A stretch of 52,977 nt of DNA from Patescibacteria group bacterium (GCA_043819035.1 JBDRFD010000009.1:1-52977), one strand, 5' to 3'. Shown: positions 1,011-48,012, numbered from the stretch's first letter. Numbers and translations: made by a program. Notes: generated from the letters alone by a model not told the origin.

Positions 1011-1063
1011 GGTTAGTTAACTGTTAACTGTTAACTGTTAATTGTTAACTGTTAATTGTTAAC
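1011..1063. terminator. heptamer-word repeat (GTTAACT/GTTAATT x7), terminator-like
   Basis: Tandem 7-nt units containing the palindrome GTTAAC. It sits at or just beyond the stop of the 609-aa gene and overlaps its last codons (VNN*). Confidence 0.5.
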
Positions 1064-2881
1064 AAACACCCCATTCTCGATCGCCTTCATGATCGCAAAG
1101 ATCGCATGCTGCGTGTAGTCGATACGCTGTGCATTGTCAGTGATTTTTCCACGGAATCCTCCAATTGCGCGCTTTTGATTCTTGATGTAAAACGCGTTCT
1201 CGGGGATTAATTGTGTGAGGAGTACGAAGCGCGTACCAATCCGAATTGAATCGCGGTATTTTCGGATATGCTCCTCATCACCCATAATCTTCGCAATGGA
1301 ATAGGCATCGTTGATCCCTTCCATGTAAGAAGCAGTGGAATAGCGCGGCTCATTTTTGGGGAAGCCTCCGATGTAATCCAAATGTGAACTCTTTTGAATC
1401 TGATTGTTATCGATAAGCCAGTCATTCATCTCGAAGACAAAGTCTGCCACGCGCGGATCGCGCGTGGCTCGATACAACAGAAGGTACGCTTGCGAATGCC
1501 ACGGGATAAAAGCCGTATTCTTGTTCCCTCTCCAGTATTTCATGTAGTACGGGAAGGCTTTCTGAACCGATTGTAAGTAGCGCTCGTCACCAGTTGCATC
1601 ATAAAGCTGCATAAGCGCGTACATTGCCTCACCGGGATAGAAATCTGTCCCCGAATTGCGATCAGATTCGAAGTATGTGTTGTAGGACCCGTCCTTTTGT
1701 TGTTGCGACAATATACCATCCGCCAAAATGCGCATCCATTTGTCAGCAAGCGGATACTCGGGTGCGTGCAAAAGCGTAAGGATCATGAAAGCGTTGTATG
1801 CCAACTTTGCGTCACCATCAACATTAATGAAACAGTAACTGTCATTGCATTCCATTTCCTTTACGTATCTATCCAGTGTTGCATGAACTAAGGGAGTGAG
1901 AGACTCATCGTTAATAACGTTGCGCAAGACTGCCACAGACCACACCGTAGCAATCTGCCGGACGTGATTGTTATCAGAAGAGTACTTATCATCACTTGGC
2001 TCATACTGATACTCAAGCATCCCATTCTCGTCCGTATTGTTTCTGAACCAATCGGCTGCCAACTCGATCCTGTCACGCAGAAGAACATTATCAATCGCAT
2101 CCGCGTTCAGAAGTGTGTTGTATCGGTAGAGATCCACCACGTCCCCTTCCCGATCTCCCGTAAACGAAAGCGTATCGTACTTCGAAATCTCTACCGAAGG
2201 ATCCCTGTAACAGTCTTCATCCAGTTTTGCCTTTAGGCACAATCGTTCCAATGTCTTCTTTAGTGAATAATTTTTGCTGATAGGTACCGATTCTTTGAAG
2301 TACGCACGTTTGCTCCCCTTGGAAACTTCAATGGCATGGATGCCAAGTTCGATCTGACTCCCGAGTTCTTCAATTGTTGTACCTTGTACCGGTTGTTTTC
2401 GGAAGAAAATACTAAAACTGATGTCCGCATCTTCAACTTCTGCCTTTTTGAATACACCACCGAAGCGCTCATCATCGATACAGTCTTCCACAGCTTCCCC
2501 GATATCCAGACGGGTTCGTGCAGTATCATCCTCATCTGCAGATCCGCTCTGACAGCAACGAATTGTGTTGTCAGAAAGGAGTGTAATATAAATCTTGTCG
2601 TACCCTTCGACCTCAGGAACATTCTTGGGGGAAACAAACGGTCTGCCGAAGTGTGATTCCAGAGTGGCATACGCGTGCTGCATCATGAGTTGCTTATCCT
2701 CATAAGGAATCGTATCTTCTCCCACTCTTTGGAACAAAGACGCACTCGAGTGTGCCTCTTGCGAAGACGGTGCATCGGGAGTGGATGTTGTTTTGTTGGA
2801 TGCAAAAAAAGCGGCCAGAGAAATAATGCTAAGACCGATCATGACAACAGCAATGGGGTGTGCTCGGAGTGAACGAAGCAT
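1052..2881 (-). CDS. membrane-anchored protein with AMMECR1-like region and C-terminal alpha/alpha-toroid-like domain
   Basis: 609-aa ORF with an N-terminal TM helix (AVVMIGLSIISLAAFFA). The middle segment IELGIHAIEVSKGSKRAYFKESVP...LCLKAKL resembles AMMECR1. The Trp/Tyr-rich C-terminal half resembles six-hairpin toroid proteins. The function call is tentative. Confidence 0.5.
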   Translation of the reverse strand: MLRSLRAHPIAVVMIGLSIISLAAFFASNKTTSTPDAPSSQEAHSSASLFQRVGEDTIPYEDKQLMMQHAYATLESHFGRPFVSPKNVPEVEGYDKIYITLLSDNTIRCCQSGSADEDDTARTRLDIGEAVEDCIDDERFGGVFKKAEVEDADISFSIFFRKQPVQGTTIEELGSQIELGIHAIEVSKGSKRAYFKESVPISKNYSLKKTLERLCLKAKLDEDCYRDPSVEISKYDTLSFTGDREGDVVDLYRYNTLLNADAIDNVLLRDRIELAADWFRNNTDENGMLEYQYEPSDDKYSSDNNHVRQIATVWSVAVLRNVINDESLTPLVHATLDRYVKEMECNDSYCFINVDGDAKLAYNAFMILTLLHAPEYPLADKWMRILADGILSQQQKDGSYNTYFESDRNSGTDFYPGEAMYALMQLYDATGDERYLQSVQKAFPYYMKYWRGNKNTAFIPWHSQAYLLLYRATRDPRVADFVFEMNDWLIDNNQIQKSSHLDYIGGFPKNEPRYSTASYMEGINDAYSIAKIMGDEEHIRKYRDSIRIGTRFVLLTQLIPENAFYIKNQKRAIGGFRGKITDNAQRIDYTQHAIFAIMKAIENGVFVNN

Positions 2882-3219
2882 ATTGTCCTCTATTAAAGCA
2901 AAATACTCGCAAGAAAGAAACTTGAAATAGGAAGAGGCTGATATACTTGTGCTATGTCAGATCGTTTCAACACCAATGTGTGCAGAGAAAATGGTGGGAA
3001 TCACGACATTGATTTTGCGCGATTTCAGCCTTCAAATGCGGAGCGTCGCAAAAATGTGGAGGGGCAGGCGGAGGGGGTCATTTTTGCAGCGAAGCATTTG
3101 ATAAGGCTGATTCGCTCAAAATCACGGAGCGAAACTTTTTTTGATTCTTTTTTTGGTTACAAAAAAAGAATAGGCTTTGGAAATAATGTACATGCTCTAC
3201 CTCTCCCCTATTCTTTACA

Positions 3220-3948
3220 GTGAATACGATTCTCCTTTGTTTACACGGCTGGGGCGGCTCAAAAGAATCGTTCACAGAGCTGCTTCGTGAGCTCGAAGGA
3301 ACTGACATTCAAATACTCACCCCAGACCTTCCAGGTTTCGGAACTGAACCAGAACCCGATCGCCCTTGGACAGTTGATGATTATGCACAGTGGGTAGAGG
3401 AATGGACCAAGAATAAATCAAGTCAAATGTTAAATGTTAACTGTCAACTGTTGCTTTTAGGCCATTCTCATGGCGGCCGCATCGCCATCAAACTAGCAAC
3501 CAGAGGAAATATGAAAATTGATCATCTCTATCTCTGCGCAGCAGCTGGCATCAAGAGCAAGAAAACTGTTAAACGATCAATAGGACTAACATTCGCCAAA
3601 GTCGGAAATTCAATCCTCTCCATCCCTGGATTACATCTACTCAAACCAATCGGAAGAAAAGTTCTTTACAAGGCATTACGCGTGCACGACTACGAACACG
3701 CCTCCCCGCTCATGCAGCAGACAATGCAGAACGTGACGAAGGAAGACTTGCGTCCCTTGCTATCAAACATTACCGTTCCAACCGACATCTTCTGGGGAGA
3801 AGAAGACACGATGACGCCGATTGAAGATGCACACATCATGCAAGAAGAAATTCAAGGAAGCTCCCTGCATACCTATCCAGGAGTACGTCACCGTGTGCAT
3901 AGGGATAGAGCAAAAGAGATTGCGCGAGTTATTCAGAATACCCTATGA
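3220..3948 (+). CDS. alpha/beta-fold hydrolase
   Basis: GTG start. N-terminal HGWGGS motif, nucleophile elbow GHSHGG, and C-terminal His (GVRHRVH). 242 aa. Confidence 0.75.
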   Translation: MNTILLCLHGWGGSKESFTELLRELEGTDIQILTPDLPGFGTEPEPDRPWTVDDYAQWVEEWTKNKSSQMLNVNCQLLLLGHSHGGRIAIKLATRGNMKIDHLYLCAAAGIKSKKTVKRSIGLTFAKVGNSILSIPGLHLLKPIGRKVLYKALRVHDYEHASPLMQQTMQNVTKEDLRPLLSNITVPTDIFWGEEDTMTPIEDAHIMQEEIQGSSLHTYPGVRHRVHRDRAKEIARVIQNTL

Positions 3949-4183
3949 GATTATATTGTCTCATATCGAGTTTGCTACCTCCTAAATGAAGATTATAAAA
4001 GAGGCATGAACATCATCACATATACGAAAAACATCGATGCAAGGATAAACCCTGAAACGACATCCCTAAGATTGAAATCTTTTTCCATTTGGAATTGGAT
4101 AAGAAAATAAATCTTATTATTATGCCTTAATTCCCCACATATTACAATAACCAACCACTTGCAATATTATAAATTTGTCCTTT

Positions 4184-4246
4184 AGTATGTCATCGTGTCC
4201 ACAGGGGTAAGGCCAGAGAGATTGCTGAGGTTATTAGAAAATCTGA
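4184..4246 (+). pseudogene. relic copy of the 3' end of the upstream hydrolase gene
   Basis: 4191-4246 reads RVHRGKAREIAEVIRKSE versus RVHRDRAKEIARVIQNTL at 3890-3945. Roughly three quarters of nucleotides match by eye. There is no upstream ORF body. Confidence 0.5.
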
Positions 4247-4395
4247 ACCGCAGATTTCTTGAACATACGGTTGTTCTAATTTATCTATCATCTTCGATAT
4301 CTGCCTGCCCTTTTGAAGTCCAGCCTGCCCCTCGTAACCAAGAGGCGAAGTGGGGAGGCAAAGGAGGGCGTCATCTGCGCTATCTGCGGTTCAGA
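4242..4395. repeat. inverted-repeat-bounded element directly upstream of the MurF-like gene
   Basis: TCTGAACCGCAGAT (4242-4255) is perfectly complementary to ATCTGCGGTTCAGA (4382-4395). The interior contains the GAGGCGAAGTGGGG motif shared with the tRNA-Lys repeats. Confidence 0.5.
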
Positions 4396-4418: not shown

Positions 4419-5957
4419 ATGAACCCCACCTTCCTCGCCCTCCTCACTACTGCGGCCTCTCTTTCTCCACTCATTACATTTGCCTCACTCTGGCAGATCA
4501 AGGAGTGGCGCACCGATCGTTTGCGTGAACATCTAAGAAGTGAAGGACTACTCAGACAACTATTCGGAATTCTGAGACCTGCCACCCTTGGTTTCTTTGG
4601 ATTCCTTGGTTTCCTTGGATTCCTTTCCAGGGACTTGTGGCCCATCGCAACACTTGCCGGTTACCTCGCTCTCAGCGCAATCCAAATCATCCTCCATCGA
4701 CATCCCAAACCTGTCTGGACGAAGAAAGCAATGACGCTTGTCACAACGGCACTATTACTCACATTCCTCACAACGATCTCCTACAAGCTGCAAGCTGCAA
4801 GTTTTCAATTAGTTGTGACTCCTCTTCTTCAACCCTTCTATCTTTTTATAGCTTGGATCTTGTGGTCACCAACTGATAAGTACCTCAAAGCACGCATAAT
4901 GTACCGGGCACAAAAACTTCGCATGGATCGCCCCGAATTGAATGTCATCGGAATCACAGGAAGTGTGGGAAAGAGTACAACCAAAGAGCTCCTGGCGCAC
5001 ATTTTGGAAGAGAAGCACCCACTCACCACACCCGATCACGTGAACACAGAAATGGGTGTATCACAGTGGTTACTCAGCACATTACCAAAAAATCCTGAAG
5101 CAGAAATACTCATTGTAGAAATGGGCGCCTATCAATCGGGTGAAATCGCACTCCTCTGCTCTATCACTCAGCCAACCATGGGTGTGGTGACCTTCATTGG
5201 TACACAACACATTGCCCTCTTTGGTTCACAGGAGGAACTATGCCAGGCAAAAGGTGAGCTGGTCGCTGCCCTACCGGATAATGGCTCCGCATTTCTTAAT
5301 AGTGACAGCGCGTTATGCAATGATCTCAAAGAACTCTGTGCGTGTCCGATCACCACTATCGGAACTGGCGGCGTTTCAGACATCGAGGCGTTTGATATTG
5401 AAGAAACTCCAAACGGTATTCAATTCCGCCTCAGTTCTACCTCCTTTTTTGTTCCTCTCCACGGAACCCATAACGTAACAAACGTCCTCTTGGCCATCGC
5501 TGTTGCAGAAAAACTTGGCATGGATCGATCAGCTATTGCACAGAAGTTGAAAAGTTACCGTCCCGCCCTCCATACCTTCTCCGTGCGTGAAGAGAGAGGA
5601 GTGACGATTCTCGACGATACGAACAACGCAAGTCAGGCGAGTTTCAAGGCGGCACTCGCGTGGGCCAAATCTCAACCTGCAGAGAATAAGATTCTTCTGA
5701 CGAGTGGCTTAATAGAGCTCGGCGATGCTCAGGATCGCACACACACAGAACTCGGTACACTCTCGGCGGGAATCTTTGACCGTGTCGTTTTTACACACAG
5801 AAAAAGTGCTCGCAGTTTCGCACGTGGCTATGGCCAGGACATCGAAATCTTTACAAAGTACTCAGAAAAAGTAGATCCGGATTCACTTTTGGTCTGCGTT
5901 GGAAGAATGTCCACGAGCATTATCGAGAAACTACTTCCCAAAATTTCTGAACCTTGA
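4419..5957 (+). CDS. murF: MurF-family Mur ligase (UDP-MurNAc-peptide D-Ala-D-Ala-adding type) with N-terminal multi-TM domain
   Basis: P-loop VIGITGSVGKSTTKE and the MurF-like DDTNNAS motif. The first ~170 aa form 4-5 hydrophobic helices instead of the usual soluble domain 1. Confidence 0.6.
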   Translation: MNPTFLALLTTAASLSPLITFASLWQIKEWRTDRLREHLRSEGLLRQLFGILRPATLGFFGFLGFLGFLSRDLWPIATLAGYLALSAIQIILHRHPKPVWTKKAMTLVTTALLLTFLTTISYKLQAASFQLVVTPLLQPFYLFIAWILWSPTDKYLKARIMYRAQKLRMDRPELNVIGITGSVGKSTTKELLAHILEEKHPLTTPDHVNTEMGVSQWLLSTLPKNPEAEILIVEMGAYQSGEIALLCSITQPTMGVVTFIGTQHIALFGSQEELCQAKGELVAALPDNGSAFLNSDSALCNDLKELCACPITTIGTGGVSDIEAFDIEETPNGIQFRLSSTSFFVPLHGTHNVTNVLLAIAVAEKLGMDRSAIAQKLKSYRPALHTFSVREERGVTILDDTNNASQASFKAALAWAKSQPAENKILLTSGLIELGDAQDRTHTELGTLSAGIFDRVVFTHRKSARSFARGYGQDIEIFTKYSEKVDPDSLLVCVGRMSTSIIEKLLPKISEP

Positions 5958-7595: not shown

Positions 7596-8603
7596 ATGAC
7601 AATTTCCCAAGCCGCTAATCAAGATCAGTGGGATTCCTTCCTCGCTTCCCAGAAGTATTCCCCCTTCCTCCAGAGCTGGACGATGGGCGAAGTGTACAGA
7701 GACATCGGTGAAGAACCGTTGCGACTTGAGATGAGAGAAGGAAATGAATTAGTAGGAATTTGTCAGGCGATTGTGGTTCCGGCGAAGCGCGGCAGACACC
7801 TCGCTGTCCCCTACGGACCTGTCTTAGATGTCAATTGTCAATTATCAATTGTCAATTACCTCTTAGAGGAACTAAAAAAAATCGCATCCAATCATAACTG
7901 CGCTTTTATCCGCCTCAGTCCTTTTTGGACAGTAACTACTTCACACATTGAGGGAACCAAACCTTCCCCACTCCATCTACTTGCTGAACATATTTGGTAC
8001 TTGGATTTAAAAGGAAAAACCGAAGACGATCTTATGAAGAACATGCGTCAAAATCACAGAAACCTCATTCGCCGAGCACAAAAGGAAGGCGTGGAAGTAA
8101 TTGCATCAACTAATCCAACCCAAGACATAAATGAATTCTTCCGACTTTATGATGAAACAAGAAAGCGCCACCACTTCGTCCCCTATCCAAACAACTTCAT
8201 TACTTCACAGCTTAAGCACTTCTCAACTCGCAACGAATGTACGCTTTACCTCGCAAAATATCAGGGCGAAGTCATCGCATCCTCGCTACACATGCACTTT
8301 GGTAGCGAGACGAGCTACCACCACGGTGCAAGTACACATAAGTATCCGAAAATTCCCGCAAGTTATCTGCTTCAGTGGACTGCAATCACAGATGCAATGA
8401 AGCGAGGTGATCATATGTACAACTTCTGGGGCATCGCACCTGAGGAAGAAAAGAAGCACCCTTTCCGTGGGGTAACACTATTCAAAACCGGATTCGGTGG
8501 AGAACTCCTGGAGCTTCAGCACTGCAGCGACCTGCCGCTCAAACCTTCTTACCACGCAACACGTGCGTTTGAGATGTGGAGGAAGTGGAGACGGGGATTT
8601 TAG
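7596..8603 (+). CDS. FemAB-family peptidoglycan interpeptide-bridge peptidyltransferase
   Basis: FLQSW.WGEV-type N-terminus, NMRQNHRNLIRRAQKEGVEV, YHHGAS..YLLQW..I..A...G...YNFWGI, and FK.GFGG. Confidence 0.75.
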   Translation: MTISQAANQDQWDSFLASQKYSPFLQSWTMGEVYRDIGEEPLRLEMREGNELVGICQAIVVPAKRGRHLAVPYGPVLDVNCQLSIVNYLLEELKKIASNHNCAFIRLSPFWTVTTSHIEGTKPSPLHLLAEHIWYLDLKGKTEDDLMKNMRQNHRNLIRRAQKEGVEVIASTNPTQDINEFFRLYDETRKRHHFVPYPNNFITSQLKHFSTRNECTLYLAKYQGEVIASSLHMHFGSETSYHHGASTHKYPKIPASYLLQWTAITDAMKRGDHMYNFWGIAPEEEKKHPFRGVTLFKTGFGGELLELQHCSDLPLKPSYHATRAFEMWRKWRRGF

Positions 8604-9907: not shown

Positions 9908-10046
9908 TCTACGAATCATCCGCAGCAGCGGCGCGGATTCGCCTGTGGTGAGCAATGCCGAAACAGCTATCCGCGCGGATCGTGCAGGTAACCGAACCTG
10001 CACTGCGTGTTGTTCAGATATTCCTTACAAGCTACAAGCTAGAAAT

Positions 10047-14291: not shown

Positions 14292-14373
14292 ATGGCTAAA
14301 TGGTTGGATGGCTGGATGGTCCTAAACTTGCCATTCGCTTGCGAACCATCCAGCCATTTAGCCATTTAGCCAT
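14292..14373. terminator. long hairpin built from 8-nt words (ATGGCTAA ATGGTTGG ATGGCTGG / complement)
   Basis: The left arm (14292-14320) is complementary to the right arm (14345-14373) with a few mismatches. Loop is CCTAAACTTGCCATTCGCTTGCGA. It lies between two + strand genes. Confidence 0.6.
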
Positions 14374-14467: not shown

Positions 14468-16780
14468 ATGGCTCAAAAAAGCGCCAATACTCTGCCGGCA
14501 CAACAGATTAGGCTCAGCCGTGTGCTCGTTGCCGCGATTGATGACCTTCTTGGGCTGCAACGCAGGGTTGAAAATACGCTGAAGGCGGCAAAACTTGCGA
14601 AGAGGCAAAAATTGACCACTGAGGATCAGGAGGAACTGAAACGTTACGAAGAAGGACTGCAGAAAACGCTCGATATTATTGCGCCTGCGGGAATGGAGAT
14701 TAAACCGGATGAATTCATTCTCAACGATCTGCATGGTCGAGTCCTCTATGCACTGAACTGGCCGCATTACATCTATCCAAACTGGCTCTCGGAGGAAATC
14801 AACTTCGATGCACACATGAATATCAGTCAGTTTATCTATCCTGCAGACAATAAGACGATAATGCGGATGCTCAGGAAAAAGGTGACGCAAATGCGTTCAT
14901 CTATTCACATGCTGGAACAACGAGGTATTGTTCGTGATCCATCGCTGGAAGCGGCACTGCAAGATGCGGAGGAGCTCAGAGACCTTCTCACACGTGGACG
15001 TGAAAAGCTCTTCCAAATCGGACTCTATGTGACGATTTACTCAGATGATCAGGAGAAGCTCAAGAAACTCCAGACAGATATTGAATCGCTTCTCGGCGGA
15101 AAGCTGGTCATTACCAAACCTGCTTTTATGCAAATGGAACATGGCTGGATTTCCACACTCCCATTCGGTATCGATGAACTGGAAGTAAACCGCAATATGA
15201 ATACATCGCCTGCAGCTGCATGCTTCCCTTTCTCCAGCTCCGACCTAACCGACGATCACGGTATCCTTTACGGTATTAACCGGCACAACGACAGTCTCGT
15301 GATCTTTGACCGCTTCGATCTGCCAAATGCAAATGCAACTGTGTTCGCTACATCCGGAGCAGGTAAATCCTTCGCGGTGAAGCTAGAAATCCTACGATCG
15401 TTAATGTTTGACACCGATATGTACGTAATAGACCCGGAAAATGAGTACCGCGAGCTGTGTGAAACGGTGGATGGAACATACATTCCGATTTCTTTGGAGA
15501 GTTCCAACCGTATTAATCCGTTCGACCTTCCTAAAGCAGTCCGAGGAGAGGAAGCATCCGTTGGTGAAACACTCCGCGCATCGGTCATCAACCTGCACGG
15601 ACTCTTTAAGCTGATGCTGGGAACACTTACTCCTTCTGAAGACGGTATTCTTGATAAGGCAATCTTAGACACGTATGCGCTGAAAGGTATTTCACTCACA
15701 ACAGATAATCATGCTGAAAAAGAAGTTCCGACTCTATCGGACCTTGTCGATGTTCTACTTACAACGGATGGAGGTGAAAACATGGCGAAGACACTTTCGA
15801 AGTACACAGAAGGAAGTTACGCAGGACTCTTCGATAAACCGACAAATGTGCAGATTGAAAACCAGATGGTTGTCTTCCAGATTCGTGATTTGGAAGATCA
15901 ACTCCGACCCATCGCGATGTATGTGGTTATCAACCTAATTTGGAACCGCATCAGAGCAGACTTCAAGAAGCGCATGCTCGTGATCGATGAAGCATGGAGT
16001 CTGATTCAGCATGAAGACTCTGCGCGATTCCTCTATGGCTTGATCAAACGTGCGCGTAAGTACTACCTTGGTGTCACGACTATTACTCAAGATGTGGAAG
16101 ACTTCGTGAATTCTCCGTATGGAAAACCGATTATCACAAATGCATCGCTCCAGATTCTTTTCAAGCAATCCCCTAGCGCGATCGATAATCTCCAGAAGAT
16201 CTTCTATCTTACGGAGGGTGAAAAGTATCTGTTACTGGGATCCGAAGTGGGTCAAGGGCTTTTCTTCGCCGGAAACAGGCACGTGGCAATTCAAATCATC
16301 GCGAGTCCGCAGGAGGCCCGGATCATAACCACAAATCCCGAAGATATCTTGGCAAAGAAGGAATCCAAGAGACTTGCTGCAATAACTGATGAAAAGAACA
16401 AGGGTGGATCTTCCGATCGCACGCCCGCTCCACCAAAGAAAGAAACCGCACAAAGTACAGGCGATGCAGAAGCAAAAACGGAAAATAAACATGAACCACA
16501 ACCGGAACAGAATGAGCAACATCAAGAATCTGAAACCAAAGAAGCATCAATCGAAGATAAAGTGCTCCCGCTTCAAGATTCACTCAAGGAACATGAGCCC
16601 ATCAAGGAACTTCCGGTGGAAGAAACGGAAAAGACACAGAAGAAAACTAAAAAAGAAGGTATCCGAAAGCTCAATAAAAATATCACGCTAAAACAAGCAA
16701 CTGCACCACCTCCCGGGAGGAAAAAGAAAGAAGAAGAACTATTGGAGGCTGAAGAAGAGAAAAGTGAAGACGAAGAGTAA
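14468..16780 (+). CDS. VirB4/TrbE-type type IV secretion ATPase (Gram-positive conjugation-like architecture) with long Lys/Glu-rich tail
   Basis: IAPAG..I-type N-domain, FPF motif, Walker A FATSGAGKSF, Walker B MLVIDEAWSL. The last ~140 aa are low-complexity K/E/Q-rich. Confidence 0.8.
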   Translation: MAQKSANTLPAQQIRLSRVLVAAIDDLLGLQRRVENTLKAAKLAKRQKLTTEDQEELKRYEEGLQKTLDIIAPAGMEIKPDEFILNDLHGRVLYALNWPHYIYPNWLSEEINFDAHMNISQFIYPADNKTIMRMLRKKVTQMRSSIHMLEQRGIVRDPSLEAALQDAEELRDLLTRGREKLFQIGLYVTIYSDDQEKLKKLQTDIESLLGGKLVITKPAFMQMEHGWISTLPFGIDELEVNRNMNTSPAAACFPFSSSDLTDDHGILYGINRHNDSLVIFDRFDLPNANATVFATSGAGKSFAVKLEILRSLMFDTDMYVIDPENEYRELCETVDGTYIPISLESSNRINPFDLPKAVRGEEASVGETLRASVINLHGLFKLMLGTLTPSEDGILDKAILDTYALKGISLTTDNHAEKEVPTLSDLVDVLLTTDGGENMAKTLSKYTEGSYAGLFDKPTNVQIENQMVVFQIRDLEDQLRPIAMYVVINLIWNRIRADFKKRMLVIDEAWSLIQHEDSARFLYGLIKRARKYYLGVTTITQDVEDFVNSPYGKPIITNASLQILFKQSPSAIDNLQKIFYLTEGEKYLLLGSEVGQGLFFAGNRHVAIQIIASPQEARIITTNPEDILAKKESKRLAAITDEKNKGGSSDRTPAPPKKETAQSTGDAEAKTENKHEPQPEQNEQHQESETKEASIEDKVLPLQDSLKEHEPIKELPVEETEKTQKKTKKEGIRKLNKNITLKQATAPPPGRKKKEEELLEAEEEKSEDEE

Positions 16781-16782
16781 TT

Positions 16783-16836
16783 CAGAATTGAAAATGCAGA
16801 ATTAAGAATTAATTCTGAATTCTTAATTCTTAATTC
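16783..16836. terminator. heptamer-word hairpin (AGAATTA/AGAATTG vs AATTCTT)
   Basis: Complementary 7-nt word arms between the convergent VirB4-like (+) and DHH (-) gene ends. Confidence 0.6.
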
Positions 16837-19041: not shown

Positions 19042-19151
19042 GAATCCGAAGAAACCAAGGAATCCGAAGGGATGTAAAACAACTCCTTCGTTTTCTTTGG
19101 TTTCTTTGGTTTCCCTTCGGCCTGAGGCTCAGGGCCGAATGGCCTCGGATT
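19042..19151. terminator. hairpin built from 9-nt words (GAATCCGAA GAAACCAAG ... / TTCTTTGGTTTC)
   Basis: Complementary arms plus an outer stem GAATCCGAAG / CCTCGGATTC. It lies between convergent fmt (+) and the PUR-like gene (-). Confidence 0.6.
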
Positions 19152-28088: not shown

Positions 28089-28267
28089 CTGTTAGTTCTT
28101 GCTTGAGTTTCTTCTGCATCAACAACATCTGCAAAATGATTACGAGTACATTGTTGAATGAAACCTCGAAAATCACCCGGTGATGGTGCTTCTCTCTGAC
28201 ACCTCCGGCATAGAATTGAATCAGTAGTTACAAGACACTCGTCTGATCGGCCACAGTTAACTTCCAT
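28082..28267 (-). CDS. possible small Cys-rich protein (61 aa)
   Basis: The Cys pattern C-x5-C...C-x2-C suggests a zinc ribbon. Weak support. Confidence 0.25.
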   Translation of the reverse strand: MEVNCGRSDECLVTTDSILCRRCQREAPSPGDFRGFIQQCTRNHFADVVDAEETQARTNSE

Positions 28268-32047: not shown

Positions 32048-32050
32048 AAT

Positions 32051-32095
32051 CTACGGGAATGTAGAATTGAGAATTGTAATTCTTAATTCCCGTAG
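32051..32095. terminator. hairpin with heptamer words (AGAATTG AGAATTG / AATTCTT AATTCC)
   Basis: Outer stem CTACGGGAAT / ATTCCCGTAG. It lies between the convergent glycosyltransferase (+) and ruvB (-). Confidence 0.65.
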
Positions 32096-32106
32096 GTTTT
32101 AAATTC

Positions 32107-33210: not shown

Positions 33211-33306
33211 GAAACCAAAGAAACCAAGGAATCCAAAGAAACCAAAGGAGAAGTGAAACAGTGCCCATTGGTTTCTTAGGTTTCTTTGGTTTCCTTGGAT
33301 TCCTTG
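33211..33306. repeat. hairpin of 9-nt words (GAAACCAAA GAAACCAAG GAATCCAAA ... / complement) in a divergent gap
   Basis: The arms are complementary. It lies between the ruvB start (33156, -) and the next + strand gene start, so it is not in a terminator position. Confidence 0.6.
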
Positions 33307-33907: not shown

Positions 33908-33910
33908 GAT

Positions 33911-34135
33911 GCATAGATAGACCTTAAAAGGTGATAGGTTTTAGGTGATTAGCCTGCCTGCCGGCAGGCAGGGTTTGGGGAATAGGTTTTTGGGTTATAA
34001 GGTTTGTATTCTGTTTCAGTTTTCTAACCCCTTCCCTAATCACCTTCAACCCAAACCTGCTTGTCCGCCGTAGTCCCACTATTCTCCTAAAGATGTAGGA
34101 CGAAAGTGGATTAAACCTATCACCTATAACCTTTT
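33911..34135 (-). mobile_element. MITE-like hairpin element, copy 1 (inverted orientation, with ~50-nt internal insertion)
   Basis: The reverse complement aligns with 40152-40308. Shares the GGTTATAGGT.../...ACCTATAACC termini and the central palindrome CCTGCCTGCCGGCAGGCAGG. Confidence 0.65.
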
Positions 34136-34256: not shown

Positions 34257-34679
34257 GTGGCAAAACCTGTCTCCAAAGTTATCAAGGCTCAAGCACGCGG
34301 CGGGCAGGCAAATCCAGCTCCTCCTCTGGGGCCTGTACTTGGACAAGCAGGGATCGATATCAATGCGTTTTGTACTCAATTTAATGAGAAGACGAAGGAT
34401 CGCATGGGCCAGGTGATTCCGGTGGTTATCAAAGTCTACGATGATCGCAGCTTCAGCTTCGAACTCAAGCAACCTCCTGCTGCCAACTTGATCATGGAAA
34501 AAGCGAAAATTCAGAAAGGAAGTGGCGAACCTAACAAGACCAAAGTGGGGAAGATCACAAAGGCACAGCTCAAAGAAATTGCGGAAACAAAAATGTCCGA
34601 CCTTAATACTACAAACGTTGAACAGGCTATGAAGATCATTGAGGGAACTGCTAAAAATATGGGCGTGACAGTAGAGTAA
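34257..34679 (+). CDS. rplK: 50S ribosomal protein L11
   Basis: In-frame GTG at 34257 gives [10 protein letters not shown]...[23 protein letters not shown]. 140 aa. Confidence 0.9.
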
Positions 34680-34782
34680 AAAGATAAAGAAGAAAAAAAA
34701 AGAAAAAGAGGAAAGATTTGGAGAGAAATAGAATCCTTTTTTTCTTTTTTTGCCTTTTTATCTTTTTTCCCTCTACGAAGAC
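34680..34782. terminator. purine-run / pyrimidine-run hairpin after rplK
   Basis: AAAGATAAAGAAGAAAAAAAAAGAAAAAGAGG faces CCTTTTTTTCTTTTTTTGCCTTTTTATCTTTTTTCCCTC. A similar A/G-run hairpin occurs at 21613-21648. Confidence 0.5.
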
Positions 34783-36418: not shown

Positions 36419-36558
36419 GGACGCTTCGCGTCCTTTCGACACGCTTCGCTTTCAACAATCGACTGTTGACTGTTGAAAGATCGCCGCGGCCGAGGACGGC
36501 CGCTGCTGGGTTCTTAATCTTTTTCCACCCCAGCAGCAGCCCTCCGGGCTGCGGCGAT
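36419..36558. terminator. cluster of GC-rich hairpins between convergent rplA and dus
   Basis: GGACGCTTCGCGTCC; CTTTCAAC..GACTGTTGACTGTTGAAAG; ATCGCCGC...GCGGCGAT enclosing GGCCGAGGACGGCC and GCTGCTGGG..CCCAGCAGC. Confidence 0.55.
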
Positions 36559-36579
36559 TCTTCAGACGGAACGAGCGTG

Positions 36580-37611
36580 TTACATGAGGATATTTTTCAC
36601 ATCATTAAACGTTTCAACCCTCACCAATCTCGATCTCAGCTCCTTCGCCCCGTCAATTCCTTTGACGTAACTGGCCAGATGTTTACGCATTTCGAGCATT
36701 CCCCTTCTCTCTCCTTTTAATTTAACCGCGAGTTCGCAGTGTTCGATGATCAGAGGAATTTTTTCCTCGAAGCTTAGTTGTTCGATGGTTGGAATGAACT
36801 TCGAAGAATCGTCTAACGTCCAACGTCTAACGACGCGAGATACTAGACGTTTGACGTTAGACTTTGGACTTCTCAGCGCCTCACACACATCTTTCATTAT
36901 CCATGGATTTCCGAATGTGGCGCGCCCGATCATTACACCATCTAGGTTTCCGAGTTTTTCGACTGCAACTTCTGCTGAAGTCACATCGCCATTTCCGATC
37001 ACCGGCACTGAAACTTCCTTCTTCAGTTCATAAATCGGTTTCCAATCTGCTTCTCCTCCATACTTTTGAGCATAAGTTCTGCCATGAATCGCCAGCGCAT
37101 CAGCACCGGCTTCTATGAGCTTCGAGCAGAACGTTATGAGTTGATCCGGAGATTCCCACCCTAAACGTGTCTTCACGCTTACAGGGATCTTCACCGCCTC
37201 TTTTGTTGCCTGAACTAATTCTGCCGCAAGTTGCGGCTCACGCATCAATGCAGAACCGTGACACGATGACGTGACACGTGCTGCGGGGCATCCCATATTT
37301 ATATCTATTCCATCCGCACCCATTTCCTCGACAATTTTAGCAGCCGAGAGGAAATTCTCCGGCTTCTTCCCAAAGACCTGCACAATGAAGGGGTGCTCTA
37401 GTTTTGGATCGAAGTTCATCATACCCATCGTCTTCTTCGCTCCATAATGAATAGCATCGGTACTCAAGAATTCGGAATAGACAATCACCTCTGGCGCTAG
37501 CTTTTTGATGAGCTGGCGGTACGCCGCGTCCGTTACTCCCGCCATGGGAGCCAGTGCAACAATGGGCCGGTCTGTTGTACTCCAAGCAAACATGAGTGAA
37601 GAGACTATCAA
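36580..37611 (-). CDS. dus: tRNA-dihydrouridine synthase
   Basis: LAPMAGVTD.AYR, NMGCPA, the FMN-binding TIM-barrel pattern, and a C-terminal helical domain. Confidence 0.85.
   Translation of the reverse strand: MIVSSLMFAWSTTDRPIVALAPMAGVTDAAYRQLIKKLAPEVIVYSEFLSTDAIHYGAKKTMGMMNFDPKLEHPFIVQVFGKKPENFLSAAKIVEEMGADGIDINMGCPAARVTSSCHGSALMREPQLAAELVQATKEAVKIPVSVKTRLGWESPDQLITFCSKLIEAGADALAIHGRTYAQKYGGEADWKPIYELKKEVSVPVIGNGDVTSAEVAVEKLGNLDGVMIGRATFGNPWIMKDVCEALRSPKSNVKRLVSRVVRRWTLDDSSKFIPTIEQLSFEEKIPLIIEHCELAVKLKGERRGMLEMRKHLASYVKGIDGAKELRSRLVRVETFNDVKNILM
36810..36863. repeat. 54-nt heptamer-word hairpin embedded in frame in dus
   Basis: CGTCTAACGTCCAACGTCTAACG ... TAGACGTTTGACGTTAGAC. The 19-nt arms match at 18 of 19 positions. 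It encodes an 18-aa Arg/Val-rich insert (..KSNVKRLVSRVVRRWTLDD..). Confidence 0.7.
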
Positions 37612-37630: not shown

Positions 37631-37680
37631 TAGTGTTAAATGTTAATAGTTAACTGTTAAGAGTCTCGCGTAAGCGAGAC
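37631..37680. repeat. GTTAA-word heptamer run plus GTAA-tetraloop hairpin upstream of dus
   Basis: TAGTGTTAAATGTTAATAGTTAACTGTTAAG followed by GTCTCGC-GTAA-GCGAGAC. Confidence 0.5.
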
Positions 37681-39422: not shown

Positions 39423-39433
39423 ACCTGTTCCCA

Positions 39434-39606
39434 AAAAGGTTATAGGTGATAGGTTTAATAGGTTTGGGTTATAGGTTAAAAGGGAAGAGGTTGTGTATTT
39501 TGATACCAAGAAAACCTTTTCCCTAAACACCTCTTCCCCAAACCCTGCCTGCCGGCAGGCAGGCTAATCACCTAAAACCTATAGCCTTTTAAGGTCTATC
39601 TATGCA
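39434..39606 (+). mobile_element. MITE-like hairpin element, copy 2
   Basis: AAAAGGTTATAGGTGATAGGTTTAATAGGTTTGGG ... CCTGCCTGCCGGCAGGCAGG ... CACCTAAAACCTATAGCC. Its arms are self-complementary. Confidence 0.7.
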
Positions 39607-39608
39607 TT

Positions 39609-39989
39609 CTATGATTTCTTAGAAGCCTGGAGCTTCCTGATAAGGGAATTCAACATTTTCATAACTCCAAACAAAAGACTGCTGATCTTTCTGTAATCGA
39701 AGTCCTTTGTTTGTGGAAGTCTCTTAGCAATTTCAATCTGCGTCTCCAATTCTGCGCCTGAAGAATATGCAATATTCAGAAACTTGATGTAATCCTTTTT
39801 GGTCTTCCGAGACTTCCCCTCTGCAATGTTGGAGGGAATGGAAACCGCCGATCGTCTCAACTGACTCGTGAGACCGTAGAGTTCTTCTTTAGGAAACTTC
39901 TGTGTAAGTTCATACAGAATAGTTACGAGCTCAACGGACTGCTGCCAGACGATGAGGTCTCTGTACGAGCGAATCTGTGCTGATGCCAT
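39609..39989 (-). CDS. four-helix-bundle protein (23S rRNA intervening-sequence protein family)
   Basis: YRDLIVWQ.S..L....Y.LT..FPKEE.YGLTSQLRR.AVSIPSNIAEG. Bracketed by MITE copies 2 and 3. Confidence 0.8.
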   Translation of the reverse strand: MASAQIRSYRDLIVWQQSVELVTILYELTQKFPKEELYGLTSQLRRSAVSIPSNIAEGKSRKTKKDYIKFLNIAYSSGAELETQIEIAKRLPQTKDFDYRKISSLLFGVMKMLNSLIRKLQASKKS

Positions 39990-40151: not shown

Positions 40152-40308
40152 AAGGTTATAGGTTTTAGGTTTAATAGGTTTGGGTTTAAGGTAATTAGGG
40201 AAGAGGTTAGAAAACTGAAACAGGAAACGAACCTTACAACCCAAATACCCATTCCCCAAACCCTGCCTGCCGGCAGGCAGGCTAATCACCTATCACCTAT
40301 AACCTTTT
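40152..40308 (+). mobile_element. MITE-like hairpin element, copy 3
   Basis: Same termini and central palindrome as 39434-39606, in the same orientation. Confidence 0.7.
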
Positions 40309-40446: not shown

Positions 40447-40497
40447 TTGCTCTATTCTCCTCCAACTCCTAGCCCCTAGTCCCTAACCCCTAGAACA

Positions 40498-43116: not shown

Positions 43117-43182
43117 AAAAGTTAAAAGTGAAGAGTGAATAGTTGTATGATGTGGTATTGCAATTATACAATTAACAAGTCT

Positions 43183-45489: not shown

Positions 45490-45644
45490 GGTGACAAGTC
45501 ACAGGTCGCATGCCCGCCTGCCGGACGGGCAGGGCACAAGTCTTGGCCCAGGTCGCATGTCGCAGGACCTGTCACGGCGTACGCGAACGCCGTGACCTGT
45601 GACCTGCGACCAAACCTGCGACTTGTGACCTTCGACCTGTGATC
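45490..45644. repeat. compound hairpin of GACCTGT/GACCTGC heptamer words
   Basis: CAGGTCGCATGTCGCAGGACCTGTCACGGCG-loop-CGCCGTGACCTGTGACCTGCGACC, plus the palindrome CCCGCCTGCCGGACGGGCAGGG. Confidence 0.6.
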
Positions 45645-45884: not shown

Positions 45885-47375
45885 ATGGTTACTGCAGCAA
45901 CAACGAACAAAATCATGGAAGACCTCCTGAAGGCTTCCCCTGCTATTATCCGTGTCCGACCGGGTGAACTTGTGGAGGGGGTGGTCGTTTTCCGTGGCAA
46001 GAACAAGCTCCTATTGGATATTGAAGGCGGATCGACAGGAATTGTCTCCGGTCGTGAATTGCGAGATTCCTTCAATACATTTAGAAATCTCCAATTGGGA
46101 GACAAAGTGAGCGCCATGGTACTCGAGGAAGAGAACAGCGAGGGGATGGTGGTGCTGAGCCTGCGCATGGCCAGCCAGCAAAAAGCATGGGATCGTTTCC
46201 ATGACTTGGTGGACGGCGAAAGGACGATGGAGTTTGTGCCACAGGAAGCAAACAAAGGAGGACTCCTGGCAAATATTGATGGTATTCGTACATTCCTTCC
46301 CGTCAGCCAACTTGCTCCCGTGCACTACCCGCGCGTGAATAATGCAGACGCCTCGGAGATCATTAATCGCCTCCTTAAGTACGTCGGTTACAGGTTCACC
46401 GTCAAAATTATCACAATGGATGAGGAAGCGGGGAAAATAGTCGTTTCCGAACGAGAAGCCATGTCAGAGGAACGTGCGAAATCATTCGAGAAACTCAAGA
46501 TCGGTGATGCGAAGGAAGGGGTGGTGACAGGTATCGTGAAGTTCGGTCTCTTTGTGGCCTTCGAAGGATTGGAGGGGCTTGTCCATATTTCAGAAATTGC
46601 ATGGGGCCATGTAAAAAATCCCGCAGAACTTGCCGAAGTGGGAGATAAAGTTACGGTAAAAATCATCGGCGTCGATAGCAACAAACTTTCCCTCTCCATA
46701 AAGCAACTTACCAAGGATCCCTGGGAAGAAATCGCCGAGCACTATCCGGTTGGGAAGAAAGTCTCCGGAACGGTGGTGCGCTTCGCGGACTACGGAGCCT
46801 TCATCAAGCTCGAAAAGGATATCAACGGACTCGTGCACCTTACGGAACTTGCTCACCACAAAGTCACCGATCCGTCTGAAGTTCTAACCATCGGGCAGAA
46901 ATTGGATGCACAGGTGATCAATATAGATGTGGACGAACGTCGTATCGGACTATCCATAAAAGCTCTTAAACCGATTGATAAAGAAACACTCGAGCGTATT
47001 AAAAAGGATCGCGAAGAGGAGGAGGCCAAGAAGAAGGAATCCGAGGGAAAGGAAGAAGAAAAAAAGAAAAAAATGGAATCTGAGAAAGCCGAGGAAGAAC
47101 CAACAGCAGCAGATGCAGAGCAGGCGTTCCAGCCTGCGGAACCAGAGGTATCCACGCCTGTGGGACCAGAGAAAAGTAAAACAGAGAAAAAGAAACCACC
47201 TACCAAGGAAAAGCCAGTTGAAGAAGTTCCATCAAAAGAAGGAACCTTCGTCGCTTCTAAGACCGGTAAGAAGTATTACGCAGTGGACTCTGCTCAAGGA
47301 AAGAAGATCAAAGAGGAAAACAGGGTTTACTTCAAAGATGAAAAGGAGGCAGAGAAGGGTGGGTATAGCAATTAG
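45885..47375 (+). CDS. rpsA: 30S ribosomal protein S1 (four S1 domains) with Lys/Glu-rich C-terminal extension
   Basis: Four repeats of the G..V.G.V......G.FV......G..H.SE pattern. The start is taken as ATG 45885 within ORF 45795-47375. The tail covers 46971-47375. Confidence 0.8.
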   Translation: MVTAATTNKIMEDLLKASPAIIRVRPGELVEGVVVFRGKNKLLLDIEGGSTGIVSGRELRDSFNTFRNLQLGDKVSAMVLEEENSEGMVVLSLRMASQQKAWDRFHDLVDGERTMEFVPQEANKGGLLANIDGIRTFLPVSQLAPVHYPRVNNADASEIINRLLKYVGYRFTVKIITMDEEAGKIVVSEREAMSEERAKSFEKLKIGDAKEGVVTGIVKFGLFVAFEGLEGLVHISEIAWGHVKNPAELAEVGDKVTVKIIGVDSNKLSLSIKQLTKDPWEEIAEHYPVGKKVSGTVVRFADYGAFIKLEKDINGLVHLTELAHHKVTDPSEVLTIGQKLDAQVINIDVDERRIGLSIKALKPIDKETLERIKKDREEEEAKKKESEGKEEEKKKKMESEKAEEEPTAADAEQAFQPAEPEVSTPVGPEKSKTEKKKPPTKEKPVEEVPSKEGTFVASKTGKKYYAVDSAQGKKIKEENRVYFKDEKEAEKGGYSN

Positions 47376-47379
47376 CTTG

Positions 47380-47409
47380 TTAGCAGTTAGCTAATTAGCT
47401 AACTGCTAA
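47380..47409. terminator. perfect 30-nt palindrome TTAGCAGTTAGCTAATTAGCTAACTGCTAA
   Basis: Verified as self-reverse-complementary. It lies between convergent rpsA (+) and the HIT gene (-). Confidence 0.7.
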
Positions 47410-47420
47410 TTGCTAACATG

Positions 47421-47762
47421 CTAATCTTTCAGCGTTTGCTCACTCAACAAATGCAAATGTAGAAAGAAGACCTCTTGCCCCCCACCTTTCCCAACGTGGA
47501 ACGTGAGTTTGTAGCCGTCAATCCCCTTCTCCTTTGCAAACATCTGAGCTTTACGGATAAGCATAAGCGGAACATGTTCAGTCTCGTCAGTTAAGTCTGC
47601 AATCGAAGGTACGAAGTCTTCCTCCTTTTTTGCAATGAGAAGTATGTGAGTCGGAGCCTTGGGATTTATGTCTTTGAAAATAAAAACATCCTCATCTTCG
47701 TAGACTGTGTCTGCTGGTATCTCTTTCCGCAGGATTTTGTGGAAGATAGTTTCATCATTCAT
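47421..47762 (-). CDS. HIT-family (histidine triad) nucleotide hydrolase
   Basis: ATG at 47762 (MNDETIFHKILRKEIPA..). Histidine triad HLHLHLL near the C-terminus. Confidence 0.85.
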   Translation of the reverse strand: MNDETIFHKILRKEIPADTVYEDEDVFIFKDINPKAPTHILLIAKKEEDFVPSIADLTDETEHVPLMLIRKAQMFAKEKGIDGYKLTFHVGKGGGQEVFFLHLHLLSEQTLKD

Positions 47763-47867
47763 GACATAATGTTGGAAAACCAATAATAAGATACACCCTG
47801 AGCGCAGTCGAAGGGTGGAAGATGGTGTCTTCGGGCATAACAAACCACATTGTATCACTTTTGATTA

Positions 47868-48012
47868 TGGATTGGATGGTTAGATGGCTCTAAAGAGGCA
47901 GCAGATCTGAATATCGCTTGCCACGGTCATTCGTGAATGACGTGGCTTGCGAACCATCCAATCCTTCAACTTCGTTCAGGACAAGCCATCCAACCATCCA
48001 GCCATCCAAACC
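47868..48012. repeat. compound hairpin of 8-nt ATGG/CCAT words (same family as 14292-14373)
   Basis: Shares the core CTTGCC..CTTGCGAACCATCC with 14330-14350, with an extra inner hairpin ACGGTCATTCGTGAATGACGTGG. It lies in a divergent gap. Confidence 0.55.

Follow-up and report, generated by a model that had tools for sequence, protein, structure and literature searches.

What are the hairpins, built from short words repeated in tandem, that occupy the gaps between genes in this genome? The question is raised by a stretch of 52,977 nt from a Patescibacteria group bacterium (GCA_043819035.1 JBDRFD010000009.1:1-52977), which was analyzed over its full length and is called the window below. An earlier note, made from the sequence itself, had listed at least a dozen such loci, with words of mostly 7 and also 8 and 9 nt. 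We read these elements, at a probability of about 0.55, as selfish palindromic repeats that are the Peribacteria counterpart of the short tandemly repeated repetitive (STRR) sequences and small dispersed repeats (SDRs) of cyanobacteria, and that resemble in build the intervening sequences (IVSs) of 23S rRNA. The elements are gained and lost among relatives, their words turn over at fixed gaps, they are inserted as discrete units, one is tolerated in a protein linker, and arrays of the same type are associated, as brackets around a gene, with one gene family in three phyla.

Comparison of the ruvB locus identified metagenome-assembled genomes (MAGs) of Candidatus Peribacteria and Peregrinibacteria as the closest genomes, with RuvB proteins 60-76% identical at the amino acid level. 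The gene order clpB - AI-2E transporter - dusB - rplA - rplK - ruvB - glycosyltransferase is shared across these MAGs. Judged by sequence comparison, the host is a bacterium of the candidate phyla radiation (CPR), Candidatus Peribacteria; the RuvB neighbors and the synteny rule out a cyanobacterial host, and the host is thus not one of the heterocystous or filamentous cyanobacteria of the original STRR definition. The window proteins score far under the NCBIfam equivalog cut-offs. The analysis covered 53 kb of the host genome and flanks of up to 20 kb from relatives. Genes were called by greedy selection of open reading frames (ORFs), with approximate gene starts, which left an intergenic set of 8.3 kb in 54 gaps, or 16% of the window. 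Loci L170 and L171 represent a sister species (~85% identity, genes 81-91% identical), and L172 and L173, NCBI assemblies labelled Patescibacteria group bacterium and 98.6-98.7% identical to the window, represent conspecific strains; all four were located through the four-helix-bundle protein described below.

The proposed excess of period-7, -8 and -9 signal in intergenic DNA was borne out by same-base autocorrelation, for which 200 dinucleotide shuffles served as the null. The intergenic z-scores were 9.1 at lag 7, 7.3 at lag 8 and 5.4 at lag 9, with 5.0 and 4.8 at the longer lags of 14 and 21, whereas coding DNA displayed 3-periodicity only, without the period-7/8/9 excess. Of the loci listed in the earlier note, almost every one was recovered by Tandem Repeats Finder as a short array with a period of 7, 8 or 9; the locus at 32051-32115 was confirmed by reading and folding and not by this program. 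Additional arrays were detected by the same program at 3425, 4586, 7829, 34678/34736, 40149-40305 and 48553-48709. In an unbiased inverted-repeat scan of the whole window (stem score >= 12, loop <= 120), 22 strong hairpins were found, and in 13 of these the arms have a periodicity of 7-9 nt, compared to 0 and 0 in dinucleotide-shuffled sequence. The window contains 23 arrays that have a period of 5-11 and 2.5 copies or more (14 of period 7), and the shuffle contains 1. The intergenic DNA contains 9 of the 13 strongest arrays; arrays are also present inside ORFs, at 3425, 4586, 7829 and 36811.

The architecture that the note had described as common to loci with different words was found on reading the loci: an array of one word is followed by a loop and then by an array of the reverse complement. 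Folded as RNA, the two-armed loci are strongly structured, with energies from -16 to -89 kcal/mol and z from -3.5 to -8.6, and the stems of the gene-less hairpins measure 17-38 bp and are mostly AT-rich. At least 10 word families are present within 53 kb, and the claim that these families recur among loci is supported by 15 pairs within one mismatch, where ~4.5-5 were expected (P ~0.002). The description of every listed locus as a hairpin held for the two-armed loci but not for those at 25112-25134, 40457-40493, 43121-43148 and 41-74, which are unpaired single arrays without a fold (z about 0 or positive), the first three adjoining start codons and the last standing at the window edge. Likewise, the locus at 1011-1063 does not have two distinct arms and consists of one array of the quasi-palindromic word GTTAACT. 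Two other origins were rejected. A single duplicated segment does not account for the pattern, as long-range similarity in a self-BLAST was limited to one transposon-like family (described below), a 9-mer family and a repeat near a tRNA gene; an assembly artefact was rejected because the hairpins are identical in the independent assemblies L172 and L173.

We assessed the distribution of the elements in a control set of 80 ruvB loci, comprising 365 kb from Peribacteria and 901 kb from Firmicutes and other bacteria. The number of period-7 arrays per 10 kb is 2.6 for the window, 1.0 for the Peribacteria loci and 0.09 for the Firmicutes and other loci, so that heptamer arrays are ~11 times denser in the Peribacteria loci than in the Firmicutes controls. 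Hairpins with periodic arms and unrelated words were found in seven relatives (L001, L003, L007, L015, L016, L018, L021), and the few apparent Firmicutes hits are low-complexity sequence. L081 and L082, which by RuvB (80% identical at the amino acid level) are the nearest relatives among the metagenome loci scanned, are poor in hairpins. Another lineage, represented by a 97-kb metagenome contig (L096; RuvB 57% identical, GC 38%), carries two heptamer-word hairpins, at 14213-14288 (ACATTTT) and 14823-14897 (GGATTCG).

Two orthologous convergent gaps measure only 0-27 nt and hold no strong hairpin in eight relatives (L004, L006, L007, L009, L017, L021, L084, L085), and in other relatives the same two gaps hold periodic hairpins of other words. 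Because so many relatives have gaps of 0-27 nt without a hairpin, the hairpins are gained DNA that is not universally required. Between the window and the sister species L170, the same gaps are usually filled and the words differ. The gap upstream of ruvB holds (GAAACCAAA)4 in the window and a GTAGCTT 7-mer hairpin, (GTAGCTT)3, in L170; the gap downstream of ruvB holds AGAATTG words in the window and AAGTTAA/AAAGTGA in L170; and in the gap upstream of dusB (37631..37680) L170 carries a two-armed ATCAACT hairpin. The complex at 45490 and the hairpin at 47868 are missing from the orthologous gaps of L170, the latter gap being much shorter and containing a different single array, and L170 in turn holds an AGTGGTC hairpin where the window has none. 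The words of L170 match families used elsewhere in the window, at different loci. Two single arrays are retained: the clpB-leader array at 40457..40493 is word-for-word the same in L170, and that at 43117..43148 is also conserved. Copy-number polymorphism, which had been suggested as a check, was absent between the two conspecific assemblies. Two Peregrinibacteria contigs, L004 (13374-13633) and L087, are otherwise identical and differ by one copy of a 104-nt tandem repeat.

One family in the window is a typical MITE (miniature inverted-repeat transposable element). It comprises four copies of 140-230 bp with aligned ends and a conserved core, and its terminal inverted repeats are AGGTTAT-type heptamer arrays. 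The copies lie at 33909..34135 (minus strand, AGGTTAT words, with an extra 51-nt insertion), 39433..39607 (plus strand, directly downstream of a gene for a four-helix-bundle protein), 40152..40308 (plus strand, upstream of the same gene) and 48549..48689 (plus strand). The combination of several copies, terminal inverted repeats and a conserved non-coding core was found for the AGGTTAT family only and not for the unique-word hairpins. The flanks of the aligned copies show no clear target-site duplication, and the window holds no insertion sequence (IS).

Three of the four MITE copies contain a 20-nt palindrome, CCTGCCTGCCGGCAGGCAGG, at 39544..39563, 33953-33972 and 40262-40281, which is missing from the copy at 48549..48689 and is always inserted between TAG and G. 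The palindrome is a precise indel between species: within the clpB-leader array it is present in L170 only, and within the MITE at 39433..39607 it is present in the window only. It was found too in L001, L089 and L174. In Nostoc, SDRs, palindromic units of ~21-27 nt, are reportedly nested in heptamer arrays and minitransposons (Elhai et al. 2008). The GC-rich 20-nt palindrome, nested in an array and in a MITE with precise presence and absence, behaves in the same manner as SDRs are said to behave; the element described here is 20 nt long and targets TAG|G, and the likeness is one of architecture. Perfect GC-rich mini-hairpins are in general abundant, with 26 in the window compared to 3.2 +/- 1.8 in shuffles, and are often nested in or adjoin the periodic hairpins. 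Two called ORFs overlie repeats, one at 33924-34205 (93 aa, over a MITE) and one at 45441-45656 (71 aa, over the GACCTGT complex); both are probably spurious calls caused by the repeats.

Elements also lie within coding DNA. A hairpin of CGTCTAA words (36811..36862, minus strand, z = -5.2) is inserted in frame in the inter-domain linker of DusB, where an alignment with ten orthologues shows that it adds ~17 residues, PKSNVKRLVSRVVRRWT, after the GNPW motif. This hairpin is 98.4% identical in L170, compared to 88.8% for dusB overall. The linker position after GNPW is a recurrent site of in-frame insertion in three other lineages: L021 (5350-5420) has a perfect GC hairpin there, L012 a heptamer array of GGAAAGT words and L013 one of GTGGCTC words, each of them translated. 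These inserts are independent of that in the window. Three further arrays were found on the plus strand of ORFs. An AAATGTT/AACTGTC heptamer array in an alpha/beta-hydrolase ORF (3425..3452) is translated as LNVNCQL, and its variant word avoids an in-frame TAA. A single arm of the 9-mer family, CCTTGGTTT/CCTTGGATT, lies in the N-terminal extension of a MurF ORF (4586..4625), is translated as LGFFGFLGFLGFL and is 92-97% identical to the arms of the hairpin at 33211-33302. A TGTCAAT heptamer array of 4.1 copies in a FemX-like ORF (7829..7857) is translated as DVNCQLSIVN. The coding arrays suggest that mutation or insertion generates them and that selection then acts as a filter, as the hydrolase variant word that removes the TAA illustrates. 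Rickettsia palindromic elements, described by Ogata et al. in 2000, are likewise said to be inserted in frame in protein-coding genes, as is the one element in DusB.

The gene flanked by MITE copies (39609..39989, minus strand) encodes an Avd-like four-helix-bundle protein of 126 aa that matches PF05635 (6e-37), the family of 23S-rRNA-IVS proteins; the nearest solved structure is that of Xanthomonas XCC0516 (PDB 2gsc, 9e-28). The outer heptamer arrays of the two MITEs are inverted with respect to each other, with a score of 22-23. The gene is missing from this gap in L001 and other Peribacteria relatives. In the sister species it is 99.2% identical at the nucleotide level (L170, 8847-9227) and its leader 96.6%, whereas the flanks of the cassette are 81-91% identical (rplK 90.8%, clpB 87%; P ~3e-19). 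This difference in identity argues for a recent exchange, and suggests that the cassette was recently transferred or converted.

Homologues of this gene among 72,556 plasmids are almost all cyanobacterial. In 8 of 8 sampled cyanobacterial plasmid loci the gene is bracketed by inverted arrays (W)n, with a new word each time, and the cassettes are often wedged within an operon: one separates cas10 from cmr3, two separate cas6 from cas4, and one separates the genes for the beta and alpha subunits of ribonucleotide reductase (L162, L167, L169, L164). Bracketing inverted arrays were also found in four other CPR lineages (L174-L177) and in Gemmatirosa, Leptolyngbya, Stanieria and Nostoc ATCC 53789. 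Words of the TTAGCTT type recur at the CPR brackets and are those of the gene-less hairpin at 47366-47425. When a bracket score of at least 12 was applied uniformly, 10 of 17 four-helix-bundle genes qualified, compared to 4 of 249 background genes (P = 4e-11), the four-helix-bundle loci being drawn from top-ranked matches and not randomly; bracket scores around four-helix-bundle genes range from 13 to 35. In the window and in the 23 loci examined, these elements lie between protein-coding genes. We found no paper that links periodic inverted arrays with four-helix-bundle genes in the literature searched, and the link appears to be new. Among the 249 background genes, the sole strong bracket that is neither of the IVS-protein type nor around a transposase is that of ruvB in L021, where inverted AAGTTCC-word arrays (9828-9921 and 11047-11075) reach a score of 35.

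ORF-less IVS hairpins of ~100 nt occur, for example in Salmonella. The known IVSs are selfish elements in which inverted repeats form a stem of ~28 bp with an S23p ORF in the loop and which are excised by RNase III (PMC4990558). The elements described here share with the 23S rRNA IVSs of Coxiella and Leptospira the terminal inverted repeats that form a long stem (20-30 bp or more in the IVSs, 17-38 bp in the hairpins, scores of 13-35 in the brackets), and the four-helix-bundle ORF in the loop is found for 39609-39989 and its homologues and not for the gene-less elements. They differ in that they lie between or within protein-coding genes and not in helices 25 or 45 of 23S rRNA, and in that their stems consist of tandem 7-9-nt words; RNase III processing is here a prediction.

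As selfish repeats, the elements would work as follows. Two inverted terminal arrays would form a long stem around a short loop or around a four-helix-bundle gene, and new copies would arise by transposition or by gene conversion between loci. The gene-less hairpins may be ORF-less relatives of the gene-carrying element, or its landing sites. Their arms would lengthen and shorten by replication slippage; in a periodic stem any register pairs, so arms can lengthen without simultaneous compensatory change. Arrays that bear stop codons would be purged from coding DNA and would therefore be left in intergenic DNA. Where transcribed, perfect stems of 17-38 bp would be substrates for RNase III and barriers to exonucleases or to RNA polymerase, which means that the host may make use of some as signals for processing or for 3' ends.

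Several observations weigh against a selfish origin. For most hairpins the words are unique and a target-site duplication could not be detected, and neither a transposase nor a REP-associated tyrosine transposase (RAYT; REP, repetitive extragenic palindromic) was found in the 53-kb window, so the mobility of the gene-less hairpins is something we infer. There is a single four-helix-bundle gene in 53 kb compared to more than 20 gene-less elements, and none was found in the 20-kb Peribacteria loci that bear hairpins; nor did tblastn detect remnants of the gene in hairpin loops. The association of gene and arrays is compatible with either direction, that is, with derivation of the hairpins from the gene-carrying element or with insertion of the gene into pre-existing hairpins. 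In 4.5 kb compared between L172 and the window, 65 differences were counted, and the element DNA, which makes up 387 nt, has 1 of them against an expected 5.6 (P = 0.025); this looks like constraint and not like junk. Finally, persistence at the same gaps in the sister species and enrichment in convergent gaps (P = 0.04) would fit a host function as well.

A bolder extension of the selfish-repeat reading, which we offer tentatively as a possibility well short of even odds, is that the heptamer STRR-type hairpins of cyanobacteria, Xanthomonas and CPR are the ORF-less form, or the obligate landing or processing site, of one mobile element whose cargo is a four-helix-bundle gene, the same element as the 23S rRNA IVS; the protein would help to make, move or maintain the arrays. 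STRR-type repeats have gone unexplained in cyanobacteria since 1990.

The main rival, which we consider unlikely, is that the hairpins are host-selected signals: bidirectional terminators or 3' stabilizers without a U-tract, together with structures of 5' untranslated regions, made in place with slippage as the mutational route and kept since the genome lacks canonical intrinsic terminators. Position relative to genes speaks for it. Two-armed hairpins, single arrays and MITEs together cover 21% of intergenic bases, and hairpins or MITEs occupy 6 of 11 convergent, 3 of 12 divergent and 7 of 34 tandem gaps. The preference for convergent gene ends that had been proposed for these elements is thus upheld (6 of 11 compared to 10 of 46 other gaps, Fisher P = 0.04), as are the sites in divergent gaps and at start codons; many elements begin on, or a few nucleotides past, stop codons. 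Intrinsic terminators recognized by pattern are fewer in the window than in shuffles and almost never stand at gene ends. The sister species also keeps an element in a given gap even where the words have turned over completely, and substitution among strains is low, both as expected of host signals, and Nostoc STRR hairpins have been proposed to act likewise (PMC2670836). On these sequence features, a terminator role is possible.

On the other side, the hairpins do not have the G+C-rich stem followed by a U/T tract of a Rho-independent terminator. Their stems are mostly AT-rich and, as had been claimed, T-tracts are lacking: no periodic hairpin was flagged by the terminator-pattern scan. Neither the folding energy nor the number of G-U pairs differs between the strands, so there is no G-U strand asymmetry; since Watson-Crick pairs make up nearly the whole of the stems on either strand, this measure is uninformative on whether the elements act at the RNA or the DNA level. 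Divergent promoter gaps hold three to four of the elements, a further one is located within a coding sequence (dusB), and many orthologous gaps in Peribacteria are 0-20 nt long without a hairpin, so such a signal is not required. The MITE copies are insertional, as are the 20-nt indel and the arrays that bracket genes, and word families are common to loci and species.

We consider it more improbable still that the arrays are minisatellites, long simple-sequence repeats of 5-11 nt of the class surveyed by Mrazek and co-workers, produced in place by heptamer-biased slippage and quasi-palindrome template switching, with neither mobility nor function. Heptamers do make up 14 of the 23 arrays, as in many bacteria according to the summary of Mrazek 2007 given in PMC4679880; the two arms of a hairpin differ in the order of variant words and in copy number, as independent slippage would give; and most words are unique to one locus. 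But word families recur above chance and shift between loci across species, a conserved core is common to the four MITE copies, the indels of 20 nt are precise, and strains do not vary in copy number. Slippage alone would also not predict the association with one gene family.

The unpaired arrays form a separate, minority class. GTTAATT/GTTAACT words at 25112..25134 (plus strand, z = -0.2) abut the ATG of a patatin-like gene on its upstream side; CCTAGCC/CCTAGTC/CCTAACC words at 40457..40493 (plus strand, no fold) end 4 nt before the clpB ATG; and AAAAGTG/AGTGAAT words at 43117..43148 (plus strand, no fold) lie between the clpB stop codon and the following start codon. All three stand upstream of starts without a Shine-Dalgarno sequence, and two are kept word-for-word in the sister species. 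A comparable case is that of the TAACTGA heptamers of marine Beggiatoaceae, cyanobacteria and Bacteroidetes (MacGregor 2015), which occur as 2-6 copies near start codons, likewise a few nucleotides upstream of starts without a Shine-Dalgarno sequence (PMC4679880). TAACTGA is one mismatch from the TAACTGT of the window (GTTAACT); it differs in being one word, with 169 direct sets and one indirect repeat, whereas inverted pairs dominate here (PMC4679880). The single arrays that are conserved between species may act separately, in translation initiation. We consider it very unlikely that the repeats as a whole are repeated sites to which a protein with affinity for nucleic acids (such as ribosomal protein S1, or a cold-shock, CsrA-like or nucleoid protein) binds in order to regulate translation or transcription, as proposed for Beggiatoaceae TAACTGA and for the Nostoc recF/recO heptamers (PMC4679880; bioRxiv 10.1101/2022.06.06.494920): one sequence-specific protein cannot explain at least 10 unrelated word families in 53 kb, and the majority of loci form paired stems and not single strands open to binding, so that the model would apply to the single-array class only. 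Pure slippage and protein binding thus each cover only parts of the data.

Comparison with other repeat families places the elements described here closest to known hairpin-forming heptamers. Among the cyanobacterial families, STRR3 has the word CAACAGT. Hairpins of 7-bp repeats to which no role has been assigned are known as STRRs in Nostoc, Anabaena and filamentous cyanobacteria, the hupS-hupL spacer being one example (PMC2670836). The comparison with STRRs that the earlier note drew is apt: in both cases tandem heptamers occur in many word families per genome, are intergenic and often form hairpins (PMC2670836, PMC2408588). Some words are near-identical, with TTGTCAA, TTGTTAA and ACTGTTG in the window and ttgtcag and ttgttag in Nostoc (PMC2408588 Table 3). 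A 50-kb sequence, the alpha plasmid of Nostoc PCC 7120, contained 8 arrays and one 9-mer hairpin of the same architecture; in samples of ~50 kb each, the window thus has 13 periodic hairpins to 1 and 23 short arrays to 8. The differences are that the host here is a CPR bacterium with a small genome, that 8- and 9-nt words are common and that the arrays are short, at 2-7 copies.

In Xanthomonas, GGGAATC heptamers form convergent, closely spaced array pairs, 70-75 per genome, that are over-represented in non-coding DNA and able to form stem-loops (Rehm et al. 2015; PMC4692102). This genus also encodes a protein of the S23p family. The Xanthomonas GGGAATC and Nostoc GGGGA(C/T)T repeats have one dominant, G-rich word with G-quadruplex potential, whereas the words here are many and mostly AT-rich. 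REP sequences and REPINs, the latter being inverted REP doublets (PMC3116915), are likewise extragenic palindromes; they fold into hairpins and are enriched where genes converge. They differ from the present elements, whose arms are internally periodic and in which no conserved core of 20-40 nt common to loci was found, the self-BLAST similarity being limited to the MITE and 9-mer families. A search of Rfam at gathering thresholds returned 5 tRNAs only in the window, with no rRNA and no known RNA family for the repeats. The paper on complete Peribacteria genomes mentions origin-proximal repeats only, and no report of such repeats in Peribacteria or CPR was found in the literature searched. Because of the STRR hairpins (PMC2670836) and the inverted heptamer pairs of Xanthomonas (PMC4692102), the kind of element is already known; what is new here is its high density in CPR Peribacteria, its comparative dynamics and an SDR-like 20-nt element in CPR.

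The remaining loci of the window are described in order. A GACCTGT-type heptamer array of 5.4 copies (37..74; Tandem Repeats Finder) stands at the window edge and does not fold (z = +0.7); its word is that of 45592-45642, and any partner arm would fall outside the window. The self-folding GTTAACT/GTTAATT array comprises 6.9 copies (1012..1067, -18.1 kcal/mol, z = -4.1) and overlaps the stop codon of a minus-strand gene of 609 aa. The ACAAGCT locus listed earlier is indeed an array, found by Tandem Repeats Finder in a convergent gap (10026..10041; 10027-10042 in the earlier note), but a minimal one of merely 2.3 copies. An 8-nt-word hairpin at 14292..14373, ATGGCTAA/ATGGTTGG against AGCCATTT, begins 5 nt past a stop codon and has a stem of 29 bp (-50.9 kcal/mol, z = -8.6). 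The AGAATTA/AGAATTG hairpin at 16779..16835 (z = -4.0; Tandem Repeats Finder) occupies the whole convergent gap between a VirB4 and an NrnA-like gene and overlaps both stop codons. At 19042..19150 a 9-mer hairpin, GAAACCAAG/GAATCCGAA against TTTCTTTGG, is followed by a GC-rich mini-hairpin (19116-19139), both within an outer stem (-56.4 kcal/mol, z = -7.0). A hairpin of four AGTGAAT words against ACTATTA/ATTCACT (28018..28090, z = -3.5) lies 6 nt upstream of the start of a minus-strand TatD-family gene.

Other elements stand around the ribosomal protein, ruvB and dusB genes. The convergent gap that separates ruvB from the glycosyltransferase gene is taken up by an AGAATTG-word hairpin (32041..32105, -28.1 kcal/mol, z = -7.7). 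RuvB reaches 2 aa into this array and ends in LFQN* (32107-32115), where its relatives end in LF*; because the first AGAATTA word makes up the two final codons and the stop codon, the array overwrote the ancestral ruvB stop. In the divergent gap upstream of ruvB, the 9-mer hairpin (GAAACCAAA)4 against (TTTGGTTTC)4 has a stem of 35-38 bp (33211..33302, -41.7 kcal/mol, z = -6.4). A hairpin with A-rich and T-rich arms of period 8-9 (34678..34767, z = -4.1) begins on the rplK stop codon, and L170 carries a related hairpin. In the convergent gap between rplA and dusB, a GACTGTT mini-hairpin (36455-36480) abuts a long GC-rich hairpin (36474-36564), the whole (36455..36564) folding at -68.3 kcal/mol (z = -6.6). 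The divergent gap upstream of dusB holds a GTTAAAT/GTTAACT array followed by the GC mini-hairpin GTCTCGCgtaaGCGAGAC (37631..37680).

A compound hairpin with outer arms of GACCTGT/GACCTGC heptamers (45490..45644, -89.4 kcal/mol, z = -8.4) contains nested GC-rich palindromes at 45510-45535 and 45571-45596. The hairpin of TTAGCTT/TTAGCAG/TTAGCTA words at 47366..47425 (z = -6.7) fills the convergent gap between the S1 and HIT genes, and the 30-nt palindrome reported at 47380-47409 within it is perfect. In a divergent gap, the 8-mer hairpin ATGGATTG/ATGGTTAG against CCATCCAA (47868..48012, -55.6 kcal/mol, z = -5.8) has a 94-nt loop containing a GC mini-hairpin. A GC-rich hairpin, ATGCAGCGGCGACG cag CGTCGCCGATGCGT, lies at 45709-45739, ~60 nt upstream of the gene for ribosomal protein S1. 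It is kept in the sister species though the gap around it has diverged, and may be a regulatory leader of the S1 gene.

Other features of the window were noted alongside. Genes of a type IV secretion-like set, comprising a VirB4/CD1110-family ATPase, two type IV secretion pilins, PrgI and a TraC-like gene, are located amid housekeeping genes (14429-16780, 22294-23429, 43936-45382). A stretch of 145 nt that begins within the 3' end of tRNA-Gly(ccc) (23798-23942) recurs with 97% identity 500 nt downstream (24303-24447), and more short repeats lie nearby (23675-23707 with 25025-25057; 24286-24318 with 24879-24911); these look like an att-type duplication made by an element integrated at the tRNA gene. 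Directly after tRNA-Lys, a GC-hairpin module is present as a tandem duplicate with a period of 158 nt (30346-30434 and 30504-30592), and similar hairpins of the form CAGCCTxCGC-gNa-GCGxAGGCTG occur after tRNA-Gly at 23642 and also at 24906.

Heptanucleotide repeats have served as fingerprinting markers in cyanobacteria and have also been noted in Xanthomonas, Beggiatoaceae and Bacteroidetes. The present results place the same architecture, at high density, in a CPR bacterium whose reduced genome has little non-coding DNA. In practical terms, the stems will mislead gene callers in CPR genomes, as at 33924-34205 and 45441-45656, and terminator predictors. The association with the 23S-rRNA-IVS/four-helix-bundle family spans Cyanobacteriota, several CPR classes and Gemmatimonadota. 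If this link is causal, then rRNA intervening sequences, STRRs and the intergenic hairpins of CPR would be unified, and a role would be assigned to a very large protein family with more than 7,900 close homologues.

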